Of a DNA stretch of 64,000 nucleotides, positions 25,062 through 61,607 are shown piece after piece. Both the position numbers and the translations under genes were made by a program. The notes below the pieces were generated by a model, which searched no databases, had not been told where the DNA came from, and worked only from the letters and a program-made list of their open reading frames with translations. Where the stretch lies: assembly GCA_000004985.1 (NCBI GenBank), contig GG738911.1, one strand, 5' to 3'. This stretch comes from Naegleria gruberi (lineage: Eukaryota). How positions within the stretch are numbered: position 1 is the stretch's first letter; each line of letters starts with the position of its first letter.

Positions 25062-25150
25062 TACAAAATCAAAAACTACTACCAAGAACTTTCTTTTTTA
25101 ATTATTTAAAGGATAGTTTCAAATTTTTAAATTGTTCGGATTCTAGAGGA

Positions 25151-26093
25151 ATGCGTTGGTCTTCTGATATGTTGTGTTTTGCTCAAGATTTATTATCTTC
25201 TATGGGATATAATTTGTATGATGCAATTGGAAGAGGATCAATTGGTAAAGAGAAGTTCCAAACCAATTCCAGTGCTTGTAATTTAATTCTGCCCTGTTCC
25301 ACAACTCTTGACAATCATTTCCATATACCAAATTTCGGATATGGTGATACTTCAATTGACGAAAAGGAATTTGAATTATTCCAATCATCTATGGGTATTT
25401 CTAATACAACCCTTGGTGTTTTACAAGTTGATGCAATGGATTTATTTCCGTGTTTGAGTATTAATACACGTACTGGATTTTTAGTTGGTGCAATACAAGG
25501 ATTAATTCCAATTTCTCAATCAAACACTATCACAGAGGAAATAATTAATAATAACTTTCTAGCTGAAAAGGTAATTCAAACATTATTTTTGGATGTTGAG
25601 GGGAAAATTAGAATACCTGGAAATTTTCAATTTTGTAAATCTGAAACTAGTGAATTGATTGAAAAAGTAGTTGAAAAATTCAAGGAAGTCTATACTGACA
25701 ACATTTGTTGCACTGTTTCTGATGCAGGATCTGCTAATTGGACATATTTTACAAATTTAAAAAGTGAGAAAACTTTTCATCACTTCTGTTACTCTCACTT
25801 GGCTAAAAATATTAGAAATGCTATTGATTCAAAACCCAAACTGTTTCCAATTGAACACAGAAAGATAACAGAACCTAGTATTTTGACTAAGGAAACCTCA
25901 AACACTTATTCTACACACAAAGGTGTATGTCATTTATTTAGAATTCAATTTAAAAAGACAAGTAATATCACCATCCACTTATCAATTGTGATAGAAGATA
26001 AGAAAATTGATATATTCTGGAATAATCGTTCAAATACAACAGTACACAACTACAGTACATTATCTTCCTTTTATTCAGTTAATGATAAAACGT
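25151..26093 (+). CDS. hAT-like DDE transposase fragment. The 3' end is truncated by a gap and the 5' end is uncertain (first ATG after the gap).
   Basis: Open frame of about 314 codons. It contains ...CCTVSDAGSANW...(16 aa)...FCYSHLAKNIRNAID, which resembles the hAT blocks TDNASNM and CxAHxLNL. It lies in a subtelomeric contig. Confidence 0.35.
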
Positions 26094-26143
26094 NNNNNNN
26101 NNNNNNNNNNNNNNNNNNNNNNNNNNNNNNNNNNNNNNNNNNN
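26094..26143. other. Scaffold gap of 50 N.
   Basis: Run of n. Confidence 0.99.
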
Positions 26144-26769
26144 ATCATATCAATAATAATCATCATGACCATCCAAATATCACTCTTTCCAATAAAATTC
26201 AACCAAGTAATAGTTGAAGAATATTCATTCGAAAAATCCAGCACCGAATTAAATTCCTTCTCACCCTGTGCAGTCTCCATATATAATGCTCTATGAACAA
26301 GTACTCCAATCATGATCTTTTCCATCAAACTCGACAAGACGAAAAGTCCAAACAAGAGATTGACCCAGAGTGCTCTCTTATCAAATCTCCAAAATAATTT
26401 AACAAAGGCCACAACTATAAACAAGGCTACTCCTTGATACATTATATGATGATACCTTCCTTCTTCTCCCATTTGATGAAGTAAACTCCAAACCTTCTCC
26501 GATGACATCCATCCCCATCCAAATCTCGTTCCCAACGTTAAATGTATCCACGATGATTCATATATTTGTACATAATGATAGAAAGCATATGGAAGGGAGA
26601 GAATTAAACCAAGAAACCAATAAAACAAGGAATTTGATCTTAAATTGGTTAAAATTGATTTCTTATTGTTGTATTTTACATATCCACTCGATGATGATGA
26701 TGATGTAGCCGAGAATAATTTATTGGATGATGCAAAAGTTGAAGTGGAAGGCAAGGTTGTCGGTAACAT
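26144..26769 (-). CDS. Small multi-pass membrane protein, paralogue copy A; its C-terminus is lost in the gap. Possibly EXPERA/TMEM97-like.
   Basis: ATG at 26769 (MLPTTLPSTSTF...). At least 3 hydrophobic helices. About 97% identical to the complete 225-aa copy at 59183-59860. Start of FYWFLGLILSLPYAFYHYVQI weakly resembles the sigma-2/TMEM97 N-terminus. Confidence 0.55.
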
Positions 26770-26983
26770 TTGTAATTCGAATATTTTTTAAATCAAAAAA
26801 AATAATAATATAAAATATTATTTTTTATTCCGTGATGAAAATCAAATTAGGAAAGGGGAATAATTTCCATCATTTCAAAGAAAAAAAAAAGCGCCAACTA
26901 AGCAAAATAATTATTGGCTTTGAAAAAGTCCGGCTAAAAGTGATACAAGAATACTCATAGATTAGTTGAATCCAATCATCATC

Positions 26984-27435
26984 ATGATCAGTTTATTTAT
27001 TGCTGCCTTGTTCGGATCAAATAGCAGAAATTTAGATAAAACTTCCAATCAACAATTATTTGGCTATGAACAACAACAACAACAACCAGTAAATCATCAT
27101 CATCCTCCTCATCAACAACAACAGCCTCCACAACAACCACAACAACAATATTATGTAAATAATCCGCAGCCTCTACCACCAAATTATCAACCTTCAATTC
27201 CGCCACCCAATCATAGAAATTCAATCATTAGTAATAATAATAATATTAATAATAATATTAATTATCATCTACAACAACAACCAGTAAATCAACAGCCTCC
27301 TCCTTCTTCTACCTCTAATTCCTTCAAAGTTAATAATAATAATTATCCTAATGTAATAACAACAACATATCCGCCACAACAACAACAAGCAAATACTACT
27401 GGTTATCCACAATCACAAATTGTAGATCACAATCA
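26984..27435 (+). CDS. Secreted Q/N/P-rich protein, paralogue copy A; truncated at a contig end.
   Basis: ATG at 26984 gives MISLFIAALFGS, which looks like a signal peptide (the track start at 26966 is TTG). Poly-Q, poly-N and PPxY-like low complexity. Near-identical to 60063-60499 of copy B. The frame then runs into a gap and telomere repeat; the QTQT/PKPK translation there is spurious. Confidence 0.55.
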
Positions 27436-27485
27436 NNNNNNNNNNNNNNNNNNNNNNNNNNNNNNNNNNNNNNNNNNNNNNNNNN
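27436..27485. other. Scaffold gap of 50 N.
   Basis: Run of n. Confidence 0.99.
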
Positions 27486-27786
27486 CCCAAACCCAAACCC
27501 AAACCCAAACCCAAACCCAAACCCAAACCCAAACCCAAACCCAAACCCAAACCCAAACCCAAACCCAAACCCAAACCCAAACCCAAACCCAACCCAAACC
27601 CAAACCCAAACCCAAACCAAAAACCCAAACCCAAACCCAAACCCAAACCCAACCCAAACCCAAACCCAAACCCAAACCCAAACCCAAACCCAAACCCAAA
27701 CCCAAACCCAAACCCAAACCCAAACCCAAACCCAAACCCAAACCCAAACCCAAACCCAAACCCAAACCCAAACCCAAACCCAACCC
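27486..27786. repeat. Second (CCCAAA)n telomeric tract, internal to the scaffold, in the same orientation as the terminal one; minor CCCAA and CCAAAAA variants.
   Basis: About 50 hexamer units begin immediately after a gap and are followed by unique AT-rich sequence (27787-28485). Confidence 0.9.
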
Positions 27787-28485
27787 ACGACTAAGGTCAG
27801 ACCCAACATTTTGACTTTTATTCATCTTAATTCATTATCTCAATAAATACTCATTATAAATCAATATATTATATATCAATATACTCCAAATTGAATATAT
27901 AATCATATTATAACATAATATTATATCATTATAATGACTTATATAAGTTAATTTCAAATAATAGATTAGACAATTAGAATATCAATGAAACCATTTCAAA
28001 ACCATTTCAAATCAATATATCACATTATAAATCATGTTAGCAACAATGTATATCAATTTCAGATACTTTGGTATCATTTCAGGATATTTGCTATTCAACT
28101 TGTCAACTGACCAATACTAACATTGAAGATAGAAATCTTTACCACTTCAATTCACTTCCAATACATATATACATGATAATTAAATACATTAATATCATTT
28201 TGACATTCATCCATATTATACATGGTACATGGCTGTTCCACTTGATACCTACAGGGATGTGACAATGACATCCACTATACAGATCATTATGAAATTGTTA
28301 CAGTACCTTACTTATGGTGAATAAACACTACTGTATCAGTTTCATGACAATTTGAAATCATCCAACATGTCAGGAGTGTAATCATGAGAACTATGAATGT
28401 CAGTATAATGAAATCATATTAATTTTGAAATCTTTCAATTATATCATCGTAGATAGATCAATTAACCATGGTATATCAATAATTG

Positions 28486-31400
28486 NNNNNNNNNNNNNNN
28501 NNNNNNNNNNNNNNNNNNNNNNNNNNNNNNNNNNNNNNNNNNNNNNNNNNNNNNNNNNNNNNNNNNNNNNNNNNNNNNNNNNNNNNNNNNNNNNNNNNNN
28601 NNNNNNNNNNNNNNNNNNNNNNNNNNNNNNNNNNNNNNNNNNNNNNNNNNNNNNNNNNNNNNNNNNNNNNNNNNNNNNNNNNNNNNNNNNNNNNNNNNNN
28701 NNNNNNNNNNNNNNNNNNNNNNNNNNNNNNNNNNNNNNNNNNNNNNNNNNNNNNNNNNNNNNNNNNNNNNNNNNNNNNNNNNNNNNNNNNNNNNNNNNNN
28801 NNNNNNNNNNNNNNNNNNNNNNNNNNNNNNNNNNNNNNNNNNNNNNNNNNNNNNNNNNNNNNNNNNNNNNNNNNNNNNNNNNNNNNNNNNNNNNNNNNNN
28901 NNNNNNNNNNNNNNNNNNNNNNNNNNNNNNNNNNNNNNNNNNNNNNNNNNNNNNNNNNNNNNNNNNNNNNNNNNNNNNNNNNNNNNNNNNNNNNNNNNNN
29001 NNNNNNNNNNNNNNNNNNNNNNNNNNNNNNNNNNNNNNNNNNNNNNNNNNNNNNNNNNNNNNNNNNNNNNNNNNNNNNNNNNNNNNNNNNNNNNNNNNNN
29101 NNNNNNNNNNNNNNNNNNNNNNNNNNNNNNNNNNNNNNNNNNNNNNNNNNNNNNNNNNNNNNNNNNNNNNNNNNNNNNNNNNNNNNNNNNNNNNNNNNNN
29201 NNNNNNNNNNNNNNNNNNNNNNNNNNNNNNNNNNNNNNNNNNNNNNNNNNNNNNNNNNNNNNNNNNNNNNNNNNNNNNNNNNNNNNNNNNNNNNNNNNNN
29301 NNNNNNNNNNNNNNNNNNNNNNNNNNNNNNNNNNNNNNNNNNNNNNNNNNNNNNNNNNNNNNNNNNNNNNNNNNNNNNNNNNNNNNNNNNNNNNNNNNNN
29401 NNNNNNNNNNNNNNNNNNNNNNNNNNNNNNNNNNNNNNNNNNNNNNNNNNNNNNNNNNNNNNNNNNNNNNNNNNNNNNNNNNNNNNNNNNNNNNNNNNNN
29501 NNNNNNNNNNNNNNNNNNNNNNNNNNNNNNNNNNNNNNNNNNNNNNNNNNNNNNNNNNNNNNNNNNNNNNNNNNNNNNNNNNNNNNNNNNNNNNNNNNNN
29601 NNNNNNNNNNNNNNNNNNNNNNNNNNNNNNNNNNNNNNNNNNNNNNNNNNNNNNNNNNNNNNNNNNNNNNNNNNNNNNNNNNNNNNNNNNNNNNNNNNNN
29701 NNNNNNNNNNNNNNNNNNNNNNNNNNNNNNNNNNNNNNNNNNNNNNNNNNNNNNNNNNNNNNNNNNNNNNNNNNNNNNNNNNNNNNNNNNNNNNNNNNNN
29801 NNNNNNNNNNNNNNNNNNNNNNNNNNNNNNNNNNNNNNNNNNNNNNNNNNNNNNNNNNNNNNNNNNNNNNNNNNNNNNNNNNNNNNNNNNNNNNNNNNNN
29901 NNNNNNNNNNNNNNNNNNNNNNNNNNNNNNNNNNNNNNNNNNNNNNNNNNNNNNNNNNNNNNNNNNNNNNNNNNNNNNNNNNNNNNNNNNNNNNNNNNNN
30001 NNNNNNNNNNNNNNNNNNNNNNNNNNNNNNNNNNNNNNNNNNNNNNNNNNNNNNNNNNNNNNNNNNNNNNNNNNNNNNNNNNNNNNNNNNNNNNNNNNNN
30101 NNNNNNNNNNNNNNNNNNNNNNNNNNNNNNNNNNNNNNNNNNNNNNNNNNNNNNNNNNNNNNNNNNNNNNNNNNNNNNNNNNNNNNNNNNNNNNNNNNNN
30201 NNNNNNNNNNNNNNNNNNNNNNNNNNNNNNNNNNNNNNNNNNNNNNNNNNNNNNNNNNNNNNNNNNNNNNNNNNNNNNNNNNNNNNNNNNNNNNNNNNNN
30301 NNNNNNNNNNNNNNNNNNNNNNNNNNNNNNNNNNNNNNNNNNNNNNNNNNNNNNNNNNNNNNNNNNNNNNNNNNNNNNNNNNNNNNNNNNNNNNNNNNNN
30401 NNNNNNNNNNNNNNNNNNNNNNNNNNNNNNNNNNNNNNNNNNNNNNNNNNNNNNNNNNNNNNNNNNNNNNNNNNNNNNNNNNNNNNNNNNNNNNNNNNNN
30501 NNNNNNNNNNNNNNNNNNNNNNNNNNNNNNNNNNNNNNNNNNNNNNNNNNNNNNNNNNNNNNNNNNNNNNNNNNNNNNNNNNNNNNNNNNNNNNNNNNNN
30601 NNNNNNNNNNNNNNNNNNNNNNNNNNNNNNNNNNNNNNNNNNNNNNNNNNNNNNNNNNNNNNNNNNNNNNNNNNNNNNNNNNNNNNNNNNNNNNNNNNNN
30701 NNNNNNNNNNNNNNNNNNNNNNNNNNNNNNNNNNNNNNNNNNNNNNNNNNNNNNNNNNNNNNNNNNNNNNNNNNNNNNNNNNNNNNNNNNNNNNNNNNNN
30801 NNNNNNNNNNNNNNNNNNNNNNNNNNNNNNNNNNNNNNNNNNNNNNNNNNNNNNNNNNNNNNNNNNNNNNNNNNNNNNNNNNNNNNNNNNNNNNNNNNNN
30901 NNNNNNNNNNNNNNNNNNNNNNNNNNNNNNNNNNNNNNNNNNNNNNNNNNNNNNNNNNNNNNNNNNNNNNNNNNNNNNNNNNNNNNNNNNNNNNNNNNNN
31001 NNNNNNNNNNNNNNNNNNNNNNNNNNNNNNNNNNNNNNNNNNNNNNNNNNNNNNNNNNNNNNNNNNNNNNNNNNNNNNNNNNNNNNNNNNNNNNNNNNNN
31101 NNNNNNNNNNNNNNNNNNNNNNNNNNNNNNNNNNNNNNNNNNNNNNNNNNNNNNNNNNNNNNNNNNNNNNNNNNNNNNNNNNNNNNNNNNNNNNNNNNNN
31201 NNNNNNNNNNNNNNNNNNNNNNNNNNNNNNNNNNNNNNNNNNNNNNNNNNNNNNNNNNNNNNNNNNNNNNNNNNNNNNNNNNNNNNNNNNNNNNNNNNNN
31301 NNNNNNNNNNNNNNNNNNNNNNNNNNNNNNNNNNNNNNNNNNNNNNNNNNNNNNNNNNNNNNNNNNNNNNNNNNNNNNNNNNNNNNNNNNNNNNNNNNNN

Positions 31401-31839
31401 NNNNNNNNNNNNNNNNNNNNNNNNNNNNNNNNNNNNNNNNNNNNNNNNNNNNNNNNNNNNNNNNNNNNNNNNNNNNNNNNNNNNNNNNNNNNNNNNNNNN
31501 NNNNNNNNNNNNNNNNNNNNNNNNNNNNNNNNNNNNNNNNNNNNNNNNNNNNNNNNNNNNNNNNNNNNNNNNNNNNNNNNNNNNNNNNNNNNNNNNNNNN
31601 NNNNNNNNNNNNNNNNNNNNNNNNNNNNNNNNNNNNNNNNNNNNNNNNNNNNNNNNNNNNNNNNNNNNNNNNNNNNNNNNNNNNNNNNNNNNNNNNNNNN
31701 NNNNNNNNNNNNNNNNNNNNNNNNNNNNNNNNNNNNNNNNNNNNNNNNNNNNNNNNNNNNNNNNNNNNNNNNNNNNNNNNNNNNNNNNNNNNNNNNNNNN
31801 NNNNNNNNNNNNNNNNNNNNNNNNNNNNNNNNNNNNNNN
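28486..31839. other. Assembly gap of 3,354 N.
   Basis: Run of n. Confidence 0.99.
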
Positions 31840-51972: not shown

Positions 51973-54309
51973 ATGACAACAGACAGCCATCATCACTCGC
52001 TTCTCATACGACAATACATCTTTCTATCCTCCATTCTTCTTCTCCTTTTCGTCTTTTCACAAGTTTCGTCTCAAGATTATTACATTTCGAATACGGGATT
52101 TTTAGCTCCACAACCAGATGGAATAACATACAATGCAGGGAGTTTATATGTAGCCCTGAATGCTACCAATAGAATAGTCAAGTTTGACCTCACCTCGCAA
52201 CAAGTTTCGTATATTGCTGGAACTGGCCAGGAAGGTTTCGGTGGAGAAAACGAAATTGCGACCGAATCTCCTCTCCGAGCTCCATCAATTGCAAAACTGG
52301 CCTCTGATGGTACCATTTACATTACCGATTGTTCAAATGATAGAATTAGAAAGATTGTTGCTGGCAATGTTTCGACTCTAGTTTCGTCTATTTCATTGAG
52401 TCGACCTTTCGGATTAGATATTCATCCAATAAGTGGTGATTTGTACATTTCAGAATTAACTTCACGAATTGTCAAATTGACACCAAGTTCTGGAATAGCA
52501 GAAGCTTTGACTTTGAATGGAAATGGTTACAATGGAGATCAAATTCTAGCAATTTCTGCCAATGTCAACAATCCATTGCATATCCACGTGAAAAGTAATG
52601 GAGAATATTACTTTTTGGATTATGGAAATAATGCTATTCGAAAGGTGGATCTAAATGGATATATTTCTACAATAGTTTTGGGTGCATTTACTGCTATTGG
52701 TGGCGATCCTTTAATTAGTAATGAATTTTATTATGGAGGAGTTGGACAAATTTTCAAATATTCGAATGGATCATCTGTTCTAATTGCTGGTGGAGGAGTT
52801 TTGGATGTGGATGATGTTGATGCTAAAACTGTAATGTTTGGCCAAGTTTTTGGAATTACTTTGGGAGTGAGTGGTGAGGTTTACTTTTCAGATTATGGAA
52901 ATGGAAGAATTAGAAAGTTGGTGACATGTAGTGCAGGAACTTCCTATTCTGGCTATACTCATTCGTGTGTTTCTTGTTTTGGAGCAAGTGGTGCAGGGGC
53001 ATGTTCTGGAAATGGTGTTTGCATTAATAATGATGTTTGCGCATGTACTGTTTCAGGTTTTAGTGGAACTTATTGCAATGTTTCCGTTACTACTTGTTTT
53101 AACATTACAAGCGATCAGCCAACTACTTGTTCAGGTCATGGATCTTGCGTTTCTTTGAATAATTGTTCGTGTCTTTCTGGATATGATGCAATCGATTGCT
53201 CTGTCAACATTTCACCATTTGCAATGAGTACCAGTATTTCTTCAACCTCAGTTTCAGACTCTTCAGCAATTGGCATTCAAGCAATTTACTCTTCAGATGT
53301 TAATCCAACTTATTTCATTTGGGCTTGTACGAATTGTATCTATAAGGATTCGAATAATCAATTGCAATTTAGCAATATATCAAATACTGCCATTATTGAT
53401 GGTTCATTACTCAGTGTAGGAACTTATTCATTTACTGTTTATGGTATTTATGATAATGGACCTTCGTATCCAGCCAGAGTTTCGAATGTTGCCAATTTCC
53501 AAATCACAGTAATCAAATCAGTATTTTCTTCATCTTCGTTGGAGATTTATGGATTGCCATCGGTTGTGGTGGCTACAAACGCATCAAGCTCTCTCAACAT
53601 TATCATTCCACGACTTTCTCTCGATCAAACTCTCATTAATCAATTCTTGTCATGCAGTAACAGCTCAACAACATGTGGATTGTTAATTTCCTACAATGCT
53701 GCTCTGTCAATTACCAAGAACTCAATTACCTCCGTCATTTCAAGTTACAACGGTTACACCATGGCCAGTACAAATTTCATGAATAATACCATCACCTTTA
53801 CTCCATCTTTGAATTTTAAGGATAGTAATGCATATTCTGGCACTGAAATGATTCTCAATTTGGAGCTTACTGGTGCCACCAATTTGACCTTCTCTACTTC
53901 AGTACCAATTTATTCTTCAGCCACTCCACCACAAAGTACATCTGCAAATTCGACAGGTGGCGTGTTGGTTGATGTTTTGGGAATAGTGTCTCCATCATCA
54001 GGTAGAGCCCTCTCTGATCTTTTCACAATTACTTTTTCATCATGGACTGCAGCAGCTCAATTATTACCTTTGAAATATTCTGTTGGATTTGTAGATCCTG
54101 TTACTTCGAATGTGGTGAGAGTTACCGATTATACAGAGACCACTTCAGCTAATTTCATTCTTCCTTATCTTTCTTCGGTTTCTAATAGTAGAGGCCTTTT
54201 AGCTACTAGCTCGGTATCTGTAGTTGTTTTTGTGAATGATTCTATGGGAAATCAATATTCAAGTACTGTTCTCCCTATGCAGGAACAACGACAGAGTTGG
54301 TTTCTCTAA
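51973..54309 (+). CDS. Extracellular NHL-repeat / EGF-like (tenascin-type Cys-rich) / S-T-rich region with a signal peptide. Probably the 5' part of the GPCR gene below.
   Basis: Signal-like LLIRQYIFLSSILLLLFVFSQVSS. NHL repeats (GTIYITDCSNDRIRKI, GDLYISELTSRIVKL, EYYFLDYGNNAIRKV, EVYFSDYGNGRIRKL). EGF-like CSGNGVCINNDVCACTVSGFSGTYC...CSGHGSCVSLNNCSCLSGYDAIDC. The track ORF ends with TAA at 54307-54309 and overlaps the next ORF. Confidence 0.6.
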   Translation: MTTDSHHHSLLIRQYIFLSSILLLLFVFSQVSSQDYYISNTGFLAPQPDGITYNAGSLYVALNATNRIVKFDLTSQQVSYIAGTGQEGFGGENEIATESPLRAPSIAKLASDGTIYITDCSNDRIRKIVAGNVSTLVSSISLSRPFGLDIHPISGDLYISELTSRIVKLTPSSGIAEALTLNGNGYNGDQILAISANVNNPLHIHVKSNGEYYFLDYGNNAIRKVDLNGYISTIVLGAFTAIGGDPLISNEFYYGGVGQIFKYSNGSSVLIAGGGVLDVDDVDAKTVMFGQVFGITLGVSGEVYFSDYGNGRIRKLVTCSAGTSYSGYTHSCVSCFGASGAGACSGNGVCINNDVCACTVSGFSGTYCNVSVTTCFNITSDQPTTCSGHGSCVSLNNCSCLSGYDAIDCSVNISPFAMSTSISSTSVSDSSAIGIQAIYSSDVNPTYFIWACTNCIYKDSNNQLQFSNISNTAIIDGSLLSVGTYSFTVYGIYDNGPSYPARVSNVANFQITVIKSVFSSSSLEIYGLPSVVVATNASSSLNIIIPRLSLDQTLINQFLSCSNSSTTCGLLISYNAALSITKNSITSVISSYNGYTMASTNFMNNTITFTPSLNFKDSNAYSGTEMILNLELTGATNLTFSTSVPIYSSATPPQSTSANSTGGVLVDVLGIVSPSSGRALSDLFTITFSSWTAAAQLLPLKYSVGFVDPVTSNVVRVTDYTETTSANFILPYLSSVSNSRGLLATSSVSVVVFVNDSMGNQYSSTVLPMQEQRQSWFL

Positions 54310-56927
54310 TCGGTTCATATGCCAGCTCTTCTCTTCTCACTGTTTTCAGTTATGACACCTCTCTTTCCGCTGCCAATTCTACTTCCTCAAGTGATGTTGC
54401 ATTGGAAATTGTGAAGAGTGTAGTAATTGATCCAAAGAATCCTACCACAGCTCTCACAGCCATTCAACAAGCTACCTCAAATCCAGAGGCTGTCGATTCT
54501 CGTGTCATTACTGAATTAACTAACAAGATTAATAATTTTGTAGCAACTCTCAATACTAATTACAAAGAAGAGAGAGCTCTTTATGGATTTGTCAAATCTA
54601 AATTGGCAACTGCTGACACAACAAGAACAACAGAAATTATTTCAAATGTTTTGGCAAGTGGAAGAGGAAATCAACAATCTAAGGGAATGGCAGATAATTT
54701 GACCAATTTATTAATTTTGGGAGAAATTGCCACATTATTAACTGGTCAGGATCAATCATCAGATGTTAACGAGTTGACCAAAGTTTCCTTCACATCTTCT
54801 CAATTGGATATTGCTGTTGCCGTCTTTACTTTGGATAAAGAAATGAATGGAACCAATCAAATGATTGGAGGTGATAATTCTGTAACCATGCCATTGTCAC
54901 AAATCACGAAACAATACAATGGATTCTCTAAAGAATCTGCCACTACCATGATCACCTATGATCAAAATATTTACTCTCAATCCAATGTTAGCGTCCTAAC
55001 TTCAACAGTGACTGATTTTAAATATTATCAAAATCAACAAGTTGTAACATTGGAGAATTTATCACAAAATATTGAACTCAAATTCAAAATTACAAATTCT
55101 ACAATTGTAATGGAAAAGATTATGGAATATATCAATAGTACAACTCAATTCAATTCAACCTCAAACAGCACCCAATCCAATTCTACTCTAGTGATGGCTT
55201 GCAAATATTGGGATGAATCTGCACTTGCTTGGAGCAGTAGAGGATGCTATCTGAAAGGATACAATTTGACAAGTCAAGAAATTCTCTGTTCTTGTTCTCA
55301 CACGACAATGTTCACAACCTTTGTGGAACAAAACACTTCGACAATTCCTGCTTCAGTGAAGGAAACAGTTGCTGCCTTTTATTATGGTCAAATTGCGTTG
55401 GGAATTTTCTATTTCTTGACTTCCATTGTCATTCTTTGTTTGTTGATTATTTTCAAGAATGAACAACCAATTTCATCTCGTTTGATTACTCCATACTTGG
55501 GAATGATTGCATTGATTGTGGAATCTCTTCTCGTTTACATTACACAAAGAGGTATTTTAGTGAGACAGTTGACTTCTACTTCAACTCAAATGTGGGAATC
55601 TGGAGATACTGATGCCAACACAATTGCAAACATTGTTCTCATATTTGCGAATACCATTAATTTGACAGCCATTTTATCTTATGTCATGCAAGTGTTGAGA
55701 TTCCAAGTTATGAAATACTTGTACGATTTATTGGCCTCCAGTAGAAATAATGAAAAGAAGAGCGATAGAATTTTGACAGTTTTGAGATTCTTGACATCTT
55801 CCTCATTGTTTTCCGCTATTTTAATTGTATTTGCAGTTATTAATGTATGCTATTGGGTCTTGTGGGTTGTTTTGAGAAGAACTGGAGTCCTTCCACCAGC
55901 AACATACACCTACATTGTTTCCATTTCGTATACGGTTATCATTTTCACATTTGGTGTCATTATTACATTGGTAGCAATCTTTGACTGGGTTGGATCTTCA
56001 GCCAAAGCAGGAATCAAAGCCAAGAGAAACTCCTCACTCACCAGAGAATCCAAATTCAAAATTGAAGAAGAAATTCAGAAGGAAATGGAAAAGTTTGATA
56101 TTTTCGAAAAGATTTACACAATTCTAGTAGGAATTGATGAACCATTGTATTTCAGAACTGAAATGATTATTTATGTGATTAGTTTCGTATTTTTAATCTT
56201 AAATCAAGTTATTGGATTGGTAGGAAATGAACTTAGATATGGAAATGAAGCCTCGTACAAGAAGGCGCTAATATTCGACTCCATTTCATTTATTTTCGAA
56301 GTTCTCTACGTGTTTACCTATTTATTTGTCTTTGGAGGATACTCTCTCATTCTATTACTCATTAGCAAGGTGAAAACATACAGAAATAACAAGGAAATGA
56401 AAAAATCTGCCAAGAAAAACATCAGCCAAGGTAGAGAAATCAACGAGGACATGTCACTTGTCTTTTCCAGCGATGAAGCCACTGAATTATTCGCCAGTTT
56501 CTGCGTTAAGGAATTCTCCTCTGAAAACTTTTATCTCTACTCAGATTTGAAAGAAAATACAGACATTATCGAAGGTAATAACATGCGAAAATTGCATCCA
56601 TATCTTCACTACATTCACGACACGTATGTGAAAGATGGCGCCAACTATCAAGTGAATATTCCAAACAAGTGCAGAACTAGTTTTATGAATCTGTTCAACA
56701 AGTATGCGAATGAGGTTTTGGAAATGTTGGATTCACAACTCAGTGAAAAGATCTCAACGGAAATAAGGAGTAGTTTTGAAATTCTAGTTCAGCAAATATT
56801 TGTCAATTTGGGAGATACCTTTTCAAGATTTGTATTTACTGTGGAATTTAAGGTTTTTAAGAAAGCATATGAACTTAGACAGGATATTTTGGAGGAATCT
56901 AATGTTGTTTTAATTGATGATGAGTAA
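54297..56927 (+). CDS. GPS motif, 7TM domain and C-terminal RGS domain (adhesion-GPCR-like with a built-in GAP). It has no ATG of its own; it is probably spliced to the upstream NHL/EGF ORF.
   Basis: GPS-like CKYWDESALAWSSRGCYLKGYNLTSQEILCSCSHTTMFTTF. Seven hydrophobic helices. RGS box FASFCVKEFSSENFYLYSDL...YQVNIP...LVQQIFVNLGDTFSRFVFT. The frame is open from 54240. Confidence 0.65.
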   Translation: MVSLIGSYASSSLLTVFSYDTSLSAANSTSSSDVALEIVKSVVIDPKNPTTALTAIQQATSNPEAVDSRVITELTNKINNFVATLNTNYKEERALYGFVKSKLATADTTRTTEIISNVLASGRGNQQSKGMADNLTNLLILGEIATLLTGQDQSSDVNELTKVSFTSSQLDIAVAVFTLDKEMNGTNQMIGGDNSVTMPLSQITKQYNGFSKESATTMITYDQNIYSQSNVSVLTSTVTDFKYYQNQQVVTLENLSQNIELKFKITNSTIVMEKIMEYINSTTQFNSTSNSTQSNSTLVMACKYWDESALAWSSRGCYLKGYNLTSQEILCSCSHTTMFTTFVEQNTSTIPASVKETVAAFYYGQIALGIFYFLTSIVILCLLIIFKNEQPISSRLITPYLGMIALIVESLLVYITQRGILVRQLTSTSTQMWESGDTDANTIANIVLIFANTINLTAILSYVMQVLRFQVMKYLYDLLASSRNNEKKSDRILTVLRFLTSSSLFSAILIVFAVINVCYWVLWVVLRRTGVLPPATYTYIVSISYTVIIFTFGVIITLVAIFDWVGSSAKAGIKAKRNSSLTRESKFKIEEEIQKEMEKFDIFEKIYTILVGIDEPLYFRTEMIIYVISFVFLILNQVIGLVGNELRYGNEASYKKALIFDSISFIFEVLYVFTYLFVFGGYSLILLLISKVKTYRNNKEMKKSAKKNISQGREINEDMSLVFSSDEATELFASFCVKEFSSENFYLYSDLKENTDIIEGNNMRKLHPYLHYIHDTYVKDGANYQVNIPNKCRTSFMNLFNKYANEVLEMLDSQLSEKISTEIRSSFEILVQQIFVNLGDTFSRFVFTVEFKVFKKAYELRQDILEESNVVLIDDE

Positions 56928-56953: not shown

Positions 56954-57955
56954 TTAGTCATGTTTATTGGCTATTTCGATTGGATTTTCTTCAAGTGGTT
57001 GGGAAGAAAGTTCATTGCGAATAGTTTCGTCTTCATTTACTTTACTTTCGTCTTCGCTGGTTTCCGTAGTTTCTTTGGATTCTTCTTGTGTTGCTTTTTC
57101 AGGAGAGTTTTCCACATTTTCTTGTTCGTTCTCTTCCCTTGTTTCTTCCCTATTATCTGAGCTTTCAATTTCAACATTCGAATTTTCCATTTTGGCTAAT
57201 ATTAAAGTTTCATGGTATGAATTTCGATTATCAGGATCTAATTCCTTTACTTTCGAATGATCATGAACTGCCTTTTCATTTTGATTCAACTTTTGGAAAG
57301 CAAATCCTCTATAATAAAAAGCATGAACATTATTCGAATCTAATTCAATAACATCGGACAAATCTTGCACTGATTTTTCATTCTCTTCTAACAATGCATA
57401 GAATTTACCTCTCTTTTCCAGAGAAACCTTGAACAGGTCATCATTTTCATTCGAAAGTTCAATAACTCTTGTCAAATCAGAAATGGCATCTGAAAGATTA
57501 TCCAAAATTCGGTTCGTAAGTCCTCTATGAAACAGAGCTTGAACATGATCAGGCTCTTTCTCAATAAAAACGTTCAAATCATCGAGAGCTTCATTTTCCT
57601 TTCGAATTCTAATTCTGGAAATTCCTCGATATAGAAATACCATATCTGTTCCACCAAATTCGATAACTTTAGAAAAATCAGAATCTGCCTTCTTAAAATC
57701 CTCAATTTTGAAAAGATTCAATCCTCTATACAAGTAAGCATCCAGAAAAGTTTCGTCTAATTCAATAACTTTCGAATAATCATCAATTGCTTTCTTTCTA
57801 TCAAGTAGACATCCGAAAGCAGTCGCTCTTTGATAATAATTCATTGCATTTTCTTCCAGTTCAATAACTTTGGTAAAATATTCTACAGCTTTCGAATAAT
57901 CTTGCTCATTAAAAAACTTTCGTCCACTTTCTTTCAACGATTGAATGTTTTCCAT
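56954..57955 (-). CDS. TPR-repeat protein with an acidic C-terminal tail.
   Basis: ATG at 57955. About 7 TPR-like units (AVEYFTKVIELEENAMNYYQRA..., AIDDYSKVIELDETFLDAYLYRG..., etc.). The tail is E/D/S-rich. Confidence 0.7.
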   Translation of the reverse strand: MENIQSLKESGRKFFNEQDYSKAVEYFTKVIELEENAMNYYQRATAFGCLLDRKKAIDDYSKVIELDETFLDAYLYRGLNLFKIEDFKKADSDFSKVIEFGGTDMVFLYRGISRIRIRKENEALDDLNVFIEKEPDHVQALFHRGLTNRILDNLSDAISDLTRVIELSNENDDLFKVSLEKRGKFYALLEENEKSVQDLSDVIELDSNNVHAFYYRGFAFQKLNQNEKAVHDHSKVKELDPDNRNSYHETLILAKMENSNVEIESSDNREETREENEQENVENSPEKATQEESKETTETSEDESKVNEDETIRNELSSQPLEENPIEIANKHD

Positions 57956-59182: not shown

Positions 59183-59860
59183 TTAAAATTGATAATTATT
59201 ACGATTAATAGATTGCATCAATTTAGGTTTCACAATCATATCAATAATAATCATCATGACCATCCAAATATCACTCTTTCCAATAAAATTCAACCAAGTA
59301 ATAGTTGAAGAATATTCATTCGAAAAATCCAGCACCGAATTAAATTCCTTCTCACCCTGTGCAGTCTCCATATATAATGCTCTATGAACAAGTACTCCAA
59401 TCATGATCTTTTCCATCAAACTCGACAAGACGAAAAGTCCAAACAAGAGATTGACCCAGAGTGCTCTCTTATCAAATCTCCAAAATAATTTAACAAAGGC
59501 CACAACTATAAACAAGGCTACTCCTTGATACATCATATGATGATACCTTCCTTCTTCTCCCATTTGATGAAGTAAACTCCAAACCTTCTCCGATGACATC
59601 CATCCCCATCCAAATCTCGTTCCCAACGTTAAATGTATCCACGATGATTCATATATTTGTACATAATGATAGAAAGCATATGGAAGGGAGAGAATTAAAC
59701 CAAGAAACCAATAAAACAAGGAATTGGATCTTAAATTGGTTAAAATTGATTTCTTATTGTTGGATTTTACATATCCACTTGATGATGATGATGATGACAT
59801 AGTCGAGAATAATTTATTGGATGATGCAAAAGTTGAAGTGGAAGGCAAGGTTGTCGGCAA
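59183..59860 (-). CDS. Small multi-pass membrane protein, paralogue copy B (complete). The canonical ATG is mutated to ACG; the first in-frame ATG is 20 codons downstream at 59800.
   Basis: Track start at 59860 is TTG. Copy A has ATG TTA CCG at the homologous site; copy B has ACG TTG CCG. Upstream, in-frame, is a TAA. An internal ...STMSSSS supplies an ATG not present in copy A. Confidence 0.55.
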   Translation of the reverse strand: MPTTLPSTSTFASSNKLFSTMSSSSSSSGYVKSNNKKSILTNLRSNSLFYWFLGLILSLPYAFYHYVQIYESSWIHLTLGTRFGWGWMSSEKVWSLLHQMGEEGRYHHMMYQGVALFIVVAFVKLFWRFDKRALWVNLLFGLFVLSSLMEKIMIGVLVHRALYMETAQGEKEFNSVLDFSNEYSSTITWLNFIGKSDIWMVMMIIIDMIVKPKLMQSINRNNYQF

Positions 59861-60499
59861 CGTTTGTAATTCGAATATTTTTTAAAAATAATAATAAAAT
59901 ATTATTTTTCATTCCGTGATGAAAATCAAATTAGGAAAGGGGAATAATTTCCATCATTTCAAAGAAAAAAAAAAGCGCCAACTAAGCAAATTATTTGCTT
60001 TGAAAAAGTCGGCTAAAAGAATTGATAATATACTCATAGTAGATTTGTTGAATCCAATCATCATGATCAGTTTATTTATTGCTGCCTTGTTCGGATCAAA
60101 TAGCAGAAATTTAGATAAAACTTCCAATCAACAATTATTTGGCTATGAACAACAACAACCAGTAAATCATCATCATCCTCCTCATCAACAACAACAGCCT
60201 CCACAACAACCACAACAACAATATTATGTAAATAATCCGCAGCCTCTACCACCAAATTATCAACCTTCAATTCCGCCACCCAATCATAGAAATTCAATCA
60301 TTAGTAATAATAATATTAATAATAATAATAATTATCATCTACAACAACAACCAGTAAATCAACAACCTCCTTCTTCTACCTCTAATTCTTTCAAAGTTAA
60401 TAATAATAATTATCCTAATGTAATAACATATCCGCCACAACAGCAACAAGCAAATACTACCAATGGTTATCCACAATCACAAATTGTAGATCACAATCA
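59235..60499. repeat. Segmental duplication copy B, embedded in continuous sequence.
   Basis: Same as copy A. The real extent of the duplication is at least this long and possibly longer; copy A is cut by gaps. Confidence 0.85.
59861..60062. promoter_or_regulatory. Short bidirectional intergenic/promoter region of the duplicated divergent gene pair.
   Basis: About 200 bp AT-rich spacer between divergent CDSs. It is conserved with indels in copy A (26770-26983). Confidence 0.35.
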
Positions 60500-61607
60500 A
60501 CAACAACAACAACCTTTCTGTCCTCCTACACACCATGATCCAAATTATAATGCAATTTCTTTGGAAAGACCTAATTTACAACCTATTGATACAGATAGTA
60601 AACCATCAGCTCCTACGGAATCATTTTGTAATGGAAAACCTTCTCTCAATGAAACAATTAATGGAAATTTGAATTTTGTACCAACATTTAATGAGCATTA
60701 CCAAATTCCACCACAACAAGAATCAATTCAATTTCAACAAAATCAACAAACAATTACTCCTCCACCTCAACAAACTCAGCCAACCATGCAAACTATCAAC
60801 ATGAATATTGCAGGTATTCCACTAACTTTGCAAAAACCACTAGCTCAACCAACAGGACAACCAAACGCTCAACCTGTTACAATGAATGCTACTGTTTCTG
60901 GAGGAAATTTCAATGGTTTTGGACTTCAACCATCCAATAATGTCGACATTACAAAACCATTTACTCCAATTTCTAACACACAAATCATTTCAACAACACC
61001 AGGATTTGGACAAACATTGTGTTATCAACAAGGATATAATAATGGAATTAGAGTTAATCAGAGAGTAGTTCAAACAGGTGATCAATGGTCAACTGAACAT
61101 GAATACGGAACTTATAATGTTTGTTTTAGAATTTCACCAAAATCAGGAGAACATGCCAATAATCCATTTAGTGGACTCGTTCTAGGAGTTACTGGTATTG
61201 CAAATCATAAACCTCCTGCAGGCCATACTCACTTTATCGTATTCAACAATGTACAGCAACGAATTGAAAAGAGAGCATATCCTAATGATTGTCGCCCAGC
61301 AATAGCCGGAGCCAGATACATGCTCATGGAAAGTGTTGCCATTCCTTATAATCTAATTGCATCCTTTGAGGTTGATTGTGTTGGAGGAAGAGTCAATAAG
61401 CAAAGTCTTTCATGTGTAATTTGCATGCTAACAAATGGACATTCAATCAGAATCAACCAAGACGAAATGGATACAGTCTCATTGTCAGCAGAGAAGGCCA
61501 AATGGTTGTATCAGGCTCTGAATTATAGTCTAGCCATGTTAAAACACAAACAACAGCAACAACAAAATAATACTATACTCTCTCAAGACAATATTCAAAA
61601 TATTTAA
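60063..61607 (+). CDS. Secreted Q/N/P-rich protein with a C-terminal ~250-aa Cys-containing globular domain, paralogue copy B (complete).
   Basis: ATG at 60063 (MISLFIAALFGS signal peptide; the track start upstream is GTG). The low-complexity N-terminal half is collinear with copy A. C-terminal ...CYQQGYNNGIRVNQRVVQTGDQWSTEHEYGTYNVCFRISP... Confidence 0.6.
   Translation: MISLFIAALFGSNSRNLDKTSNQQLFGYEQQQPVNHHHPPHQQQQPPQQPQQQYYVNNPQPLPPNYQPSIPPPNHRNSIISNNNINNNNNYHLQQQPVNQQPPSSTSNSFKVNNNNYPNVITYPPQQQQANTTNGYPQSQIVDHNQQQQQPFCPPTHHDPNYNAISLERPNLQPIDTDSKPSAPTESFCNGKPSLNETINGNLNFVPTFNEHYQIPPQQESIQFQQNQQTITPPPQQTQPTMQTINMNIAGIPLTLQKPLAQPTGQPNAQPVTMNATVSGGNFNGFGLQPSNNVDITKPFTPISNTQIISTTPGFGQTLCYQQGYNNGIRVNQRVVQTGDQWSTEHEYGTYNVCFRISPKSGEHANNPFSGLVLGVTGIANHKPPAGHTHFIVFNNVQQRIEKRAYPNDCRPAIAGARYMLMESVAIPYNLIASFEVDCVGGRVNKQSLSCVICMLTNGHSIRINQDEMDTVSLSAEKAKWLYQALNYSLAMLKHKQQQQQNNTILSQDNIQNI

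Follow-up and report, generated by a model that had tools for sequence, protein, structure and literature searches.

Start-loss variants that are rescued by a downstream in-frame AUG are a familiar kind of event, and the locus described here, a gene of Naegleria gruberi found as copies A and B in a 64,000-nt window (the whole stretch of DNA that was analyzed, to which all coordinates refer), appears to be an ordinary case, i.e., a start-loss substitution with an in-frame fallback AUG. As in such variants, the canonical ATG has become a non-AUG codon in copy B, an upstream in-frame stop bars N-terminal extension, and the next AUG in any frame is in frame, precedes all the predicted membrane segments and is used by the public gene model. 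Copy B differs from described rescue variants in that use of its downstream AUG is a prediction, and in that the gene is an orphan. As in alternative in-frame starts used through leaky scanning, a metagenome haplotype of the gene has both ATGs, the upstream one with C at -3 and the downstream one with A at -3; in contrast to the known leaky-scanning systems, two-start use here is putative. The retention by copies A and B of one of the two ATGs each is like the lineage-specific loss of alternative starts. Copy A, for its part, resembles the uncollapsed or misplaced alternate-haplotype contigs of heterozygous diploids: its contig is short (1292 bp), gap-bounded and wholly homologous to a nearby well-assembled locus, with most of the divergence in intergenic and repeat DNA and near-identity over the last 430 bp. 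Unlike a typical alternate-haplotype contig, it is found in the same scaffold, 33 kb off and beside unrelated islands, rather than on a small scaffold of its own. The biological weight of the case is small, as it concerns one start-loss change in a lineage-restricted gene, with a fallback AUG that is already in the public annotation.

Both copies are read on the minus strand. The parts of copy B and its start region are as follows.

59183..59863, minus strand: open frame of copy B, 226 codons plus stop (stop codon 59185-59183)
59183..59800, minus strand: annotated CDS of the public gene model, NAEGRDRAFT_74114 / XP_002670853.1 / EFC38109.1, 205 aa plus stop
59798..59800, minus strand: internal in-frame ATG, codon 22, A at -3; begins the annotated model
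59861..59863, minus strand: ACG at the start codon site; T>C found only in copy B in a three-haplotype comparison
59882..59884, minus strand: in-frame TAA, 18 nt 5' of the ACG; copy A has the same TAA
59814..59912, minus strand: out-of-frame upstream ORF (uORF) of 32 codons, ATG at 59912-59910; spans the ACG and ends 13 nt before the internal ATG

An earlier note on this DNA had described an ATG-to-ACG change between the copies. At the homologous start site, copy B does read ACG (59863-59861), followed by TTG CCG ACA ACC, and copy A reads ATG (26769-26767), followed by TTA CCG ACA ACC; the in-frame TAA that had been reported just 5' of the ACG is likewise present, at 59884-59882. The site that is now ACG in copy B is the ancestral start position. 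The note had further pointed to an internal ATG in copy B, 20 codons downstream, where copy A has no Met. The ATG and its absence from copy A were found as described: around the site copy B reads TCG ACT ATG TCA (S-T-M-S), and codons 21-22 of copy A are GCT ACA within TCG GCT ACA TCA (S-A-T-S). The distance needed correction, as the ATG is codon 22 and 21 residues are lost. Close to codon 22, copy B has an extra TCA (Ser) codon relative to copy A, and a 3-bp indel is an equally good reading of the site. A further Met-codon difference is found at codon 110, which is ATA in copy A and ATG in copy B, showing that ATG differences are nothing exceptional in a gene so rich in AT (G+C makes up 34% of the window outside the N runs).

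A scan of copy B for ATG in all frames found none between relative positions -50 and +62, and the first ATG in any frame 3' of the ACG is the internal one, in frame. No AG dinucleotide was found in the copy B sequence between the upstream TAA and the internal ATG, which rules out a splice acceptor that would import an upstream coding exon. At -3, copy B has C at the lost start versus A at the internal ATG. The public model XP_002670853.1 begins at the internal ATG (MSSSSSSSGYVK...) and is identical to copy B from that Met onward. Were the ACG used, the full-length N-terminus of copy B would read (M)LPTTLPSTSTFASSNK, then LFSTMSSS. At the position of the uORF ATG, copy A has ATA; the metagenome haplotype keeps the ATG, which there opens a uORF of 13 codons.

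The gene is a strict, lineage-restricted orphan. A search of the protein against Pfam-A (E<=0.01) matched 0 families. When 1.84 billion representative proteins were searched exhaustively with HMMER, no match was obtained except the protein itself, and a word-indexed protein search likewise recovered the protein only; its sole database relative is the "predicted protein" of N. gruberi XP_002670853.1, on a 261-kb scaffold. Comparison with orthologues in related species, which had been suggested in the earlier note, came to nothing, since protein searches detected no orthologue in N. fowleri or N. lovaniensis. As an orphan, the gene offers no outgroup for polarizing the changes at the start. An exact look-up of the 205-aa model returned no genomic context, and a look-up of the protein found no transcript-derived copies. 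A hydropathy scan gave clear hydrophobic segments at about residues 109-132, 134-160 and 193-219, and a weaker, aromatic-rich candidate segment near residues 48-70; every hydrophobic segment falls 3' of residue 22. The gene is probably real. Its open frame is unbroken in 3/3 haplotypes, we estimate the chance of a 226-codon open frame at 34% GC as about 4e-8, and pairwise dN/dS among the three haplotypes, calculated from few sites, is 0.17-0.67, the B-to-metagenome value being 0.17.

The third haplotype was found through the 90%-identity cluster of the annotated protein, which has one other member, P0002 (226 aa). The source of its DNA (L001) is contig k127_333345, of 813 bp, in ENA metagenome ERZ929261 (run ERR1078381, PRJEB11402). 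This contig reads ATG TTA CCG ACA ACC ... TCG ACT ATG TCA, i.e., the upstream and internal ATGs are present together. The co-existence of both ATGs in one haplotype means that the internal ATG is not a response to start loss, and the proposal that copy B had "gained" a "compensating" ATG is contradicted by it. A single additional haplotype from a metagenome thus sufficed to overturn the compensatory account. ATG>ACG is private to copy B and the missing internal Met is private to copy A; each is an independent singleton on its own branch. Either copy A lost the internal Met or the lineage of copy B and the metagenome haplotype gained one, a direction of change that we can only infer; the internal ATG would in any case predate, or have arisen independently of, the start loss in copy B.

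Other private changes are scattered among the three sequences. In copy B alone, ATG>ACG at codon 1 is accompanied by TTA>TTG at codon 2, TCG>TCA at codon 28 and a deletion of 11 bp ~25 nt 5' of the start. Private to copy A are Ala21, Thr22, the one-codon deletion, Tyr34, a synonymous change at codon 46 and Ile110, and private to the metagenome contig are a synonymous change at codon 35, His71 and Val178. Over the shared ~735 bp there are 11 differences between A and B, 8 between the metagenome contig and B, and 11 between the metagenome contig and A. With three sequences only, every difference is a singleton and the tree is a star. Recombination had been considered, since A-like sites alternate with B-like ones along the metagenome contig, and was dropped because singletons among three sequences fit a star tree. 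The A-B divergence is of the size of population-level diversity and would fit allelism at least as well as paralogy.

Scans of JGI metagenomes, with the protein and with a degenerate DNA pattern spanning the start, gave no match to further environmental haplotypes. A look-up of the metagenome protein returned only the 813-bp contig, and no mention of PRJEB11402 was found in the literature searched. The environmental metagenome holds a close relative of N. gruberi NEG-M, ~99% identical over the focal gene, and metagenome assemblies of this sort can supply extra haplotypes for Naegleria-specific orphan genes.

On the reading that we consider probable, copy B represents one haplotype of a membrane-protein gene, an orphan specific to N. 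gruberi, in which the substitution ATG>ACG removed the start and initiation now takes place at the in-frame AUG 21 codons on, giving a protein of 205 aa. Scanning ribosomes would pass the ACG and start at the next AUG (59800-59798), the codon whose use we infer. The predicted product would be 21 residues shorter, lacking only a Ser/Thr-rich N-terminal tail and keeping all hydrophobic segments. The downstream AUG would have been already present, or have arisen independently, when copy B lost its start. The earlier note had offered later initiation or a young pseudogene as the explanation of copy B; of these, later initiation seems the likelier, and the position that it assigned to the new start, upstream of the first membrane segment, holds for every hydrophobic segment. 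If transcription starts upstream of 59912, the B-specific 32-codon uORF could depress use of the internal AUG.

An elaboration of this history, which we regard as unlikely, is that the ancestor, like the metagenome haplotype, had two in-frame AUGs, an upstream one in weak context and one in better context 21 codons on, and made two N-terminal isoforms by leaky scanning, with A and B, as alleles or as young paralogues, each losing a different AUG. If true, the start sites would have been partitioned in a reciprocal, "degeneration-complementation"-like way, with the 226-aa and 205-aa isoforms encoded separately in NEG-M.

It is similarly improbable, in our judgment, that copy B is a null allele or young pseudogene, in which the start loss would have put an end to useful translation and the ORF would be unbroken simply because the loss is so recent. 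The private changes at the start of copy B are in keeping with such an allele, as the 11-bp deletion, ATG>ACG and TTA>TTG are clustered within ~40 bp; so are the private, out-of-frame uORF of 32 codons and the fact that the gene is an orphan. Against it, copy B retains 205 codons without a frameshift or stop, the B-to-metagenome dN/dS is low, and the first AUG after the lost start is in frame and well placed, with A at -3. The divergence is nevertheless too small to exclude a recent disabling of copy B.

To set copy B beside copy A, the sequence around copy A has to be considered. A tblastn search of the window with the copy B frame found one other copy, at 26766-26179, 97.5% identical. Its features, and the stretch of the B locus that corresponds to them, are as follows.

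26144..26769, minus strand: copy A partial ORF, 208 codons; a gap cuts the frame 17 codons before the stop expected from copy B
26144..27435, strand not applicable: contig A, 1292 bp, homologous to the B locus over its whole length
26094..26143, strand not applicable: 50-N assembly gap at the low-coordinate edge of contig A
27436..27485, strand not applicable: 50-N assembly gap at the high-coordinate edge of contig A
59235..60499, strand not applicable: stretch of the B locus that aligns with contig A up to both contig ends, by sequence alignment

The N runs of the window are 811-25061, 26094-26143, 27436-27485 and 28486-31839. The segment 811-31839 (~31 kb) is thus mostly gap, its four N runs measuring 24,251, 50, 50 and 3,354 bases, and the only sequence within it is three ~1-kb contigs, 25062-26093, 26144-27435 and 27486-28485. 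Whatever is read from these island contigs, their order and distance included, depends on scaffolding and not on contiguous sequence. The remainder, 31840-64000, which holds copy B, is without any N.

The matching stretch of the B locus takes in most of the focal gene, a divergent intergenic region of ~200 bp and the 5', Q/N-rich part of a neighboring gene. Contig A and 59235-60499 are 94.9% identical when indel columns are included, with about 1.7% substitutions. Mismatches are unevenly distributed: a single one is found in the last 430 bp of the focal gene, and many lie in the start region, the intergenic DNA and the neighbor's repeats. The differences look like real haplotype variation rather than read errors.

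Given these properties, the view of the earlier note that A and B are paralogues remodeled after duplication is unproven: contig A is 1.3 kb of sequence between gaps, matched by the B locus over its full length and without a unique flanking base of its own, and runs of N separate it from everything else. A passage in PMC9928731 describes Naegleria as "mainly a heterozygous diploid", and heterozygosity of N. gruberi is mentioned at second hand in PMC3507753, which cites Fritz-Laylin 2010. Given this diploid heterozygosity of N. gruberi, contig A may carry the other allele at the B locus; the heterozygosity expected of an organism that yields alternate-allele contigs is here taken from the literature alone, in the passages of these two papers (PMC9928731; PMC3507753). 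A search of the literature found no paper on a newer long-read N. gruberi assembly. We consider it about equally likely that A is B's second allele, put in the wrong place during scaffolding, and that it is a real partial duplicate. If A and B are alleles, NEG-M is heterozygous for a start-codon polymorphism, a handy natural test of start-site choice in Naegleria. More generally, what looks like a comparison of "paralogues" in this draft may depend on contigs of about a kilobase, bounded by gaps, that are possibly alternate alleles.

The full duplication scenario, in which a recent segmental duplication produced A and B as true paralogues and the ATG of B was subsequently lost and compensated for by a new internal one, is quite unlikely. 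The copies do lie 33 kb apart on one scaffold in the same orientation, the contigs adjoining A (25062-26093 and 27486-28485) are unlike B's flanks, as would be the case for a separate locus, and the indels between A and B in the neighbor's coding repeats are all of 3 or 6 bp, i.e., multiples of 3. The adjoining contigs are, however, joined to A only via the 50-N gaps, and the placement of A, which has no unique flank, depends on these nominal-size gaps. Further, the A-B divergence is about that seen from an unrelated environmental haplotype (8-11 differences/~735 bp), and the presence of both ATGs in that haplotype makes the internal ATG independent of the loss.

ACG is a known near-cognate initiation codon in eukaryotes, and copy B might initiate there, making the full-length protein alone or beside a shorter isoform. 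In the 21 codons after the ACG, the three haplotypes have one synonymous and one non-synonymous difference and no indel; the upstream non-coding DNA, by contrast, has indels. Near-cognate starts usually reach a few per cent of AUG efficiency, however, and the ACG has a weak context, with C at -3. We hold initiation at the ACG to be very unlikely.

An error of consensus or sequencing in the draft, with ATG as the true reading at the ACG, is highly improbable: both of the other haplotypes (2/2) have ATG and the window is Sanger-era draft with many gaps, but copy B lies within the long N-free stretch, and the nearby private 11-bp deletion and A>G look like haplotype differences, not single-base miscalls. 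The clustering of three private changes of copy B within 40 bp might also come from a consensus of poor local quality, a point against the start-loss reading.

We return to start loss with initiation at codon 22, the reading that we prefer, for the DNA 5' of the gene. The neighboring gene is Q/N/P-rich and divergently oriented relative to the focal gene; its 563-aa ORF is at 59916-61607 (plus strand), with a counterpart in contig A at 26832-27435 (plus strand), and no Pfam family was found for it. The upstream extension of this ORF to 59916/59919 in the B locus is broken in contig A by frame-shifting indels of 1 and 4 bp, which suggests that the neighbor's real start is probably the ATG at 60063-60065, where the protein would begin M-I-S-L-F-I-A-A-L-F-G, a signal-peptide-like sequence. 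The segment 59866-60062 is then probably a shared divergent promoter and 5'-UTR region.

Some further observations concern the rest of the window. A tandem repeat of hexanucleotide type, translating as QTQT.../PKPK..., occurs twice, and the two copies align in many registers at ~98% identity; that at 1-340 lies on the left edge of the window, and that at 27486-27794 forms the beginning of the island contig to the right of contig A. Repeat-rich DNA is a plausible reason for the breakdown of the assembly in this region. The island contig on the other side contains an ORF at 25064-26092 (plus strand, 343 aa) that is open from end to end of the contig and runs into the gap toward copy A. The possibility that this ORF encodes a transposase was dropped, as it had no Pfam match. 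In the N-free part of the window, 54297-56927 (plus strand) encodes a large membrane protein in which a GPS motif (PF01825) and a multi-pass hydrophobic region are combined with an RGS domain (PF00615) at the C-terminus, the architecture of a receptor-RGS fusion. Convergent with this gene is 56954-57955 (minus strand), which encodes a protein of 333 aa with TPR repeats (PF00515 and related families) and an acidic tail at its C-terminus.
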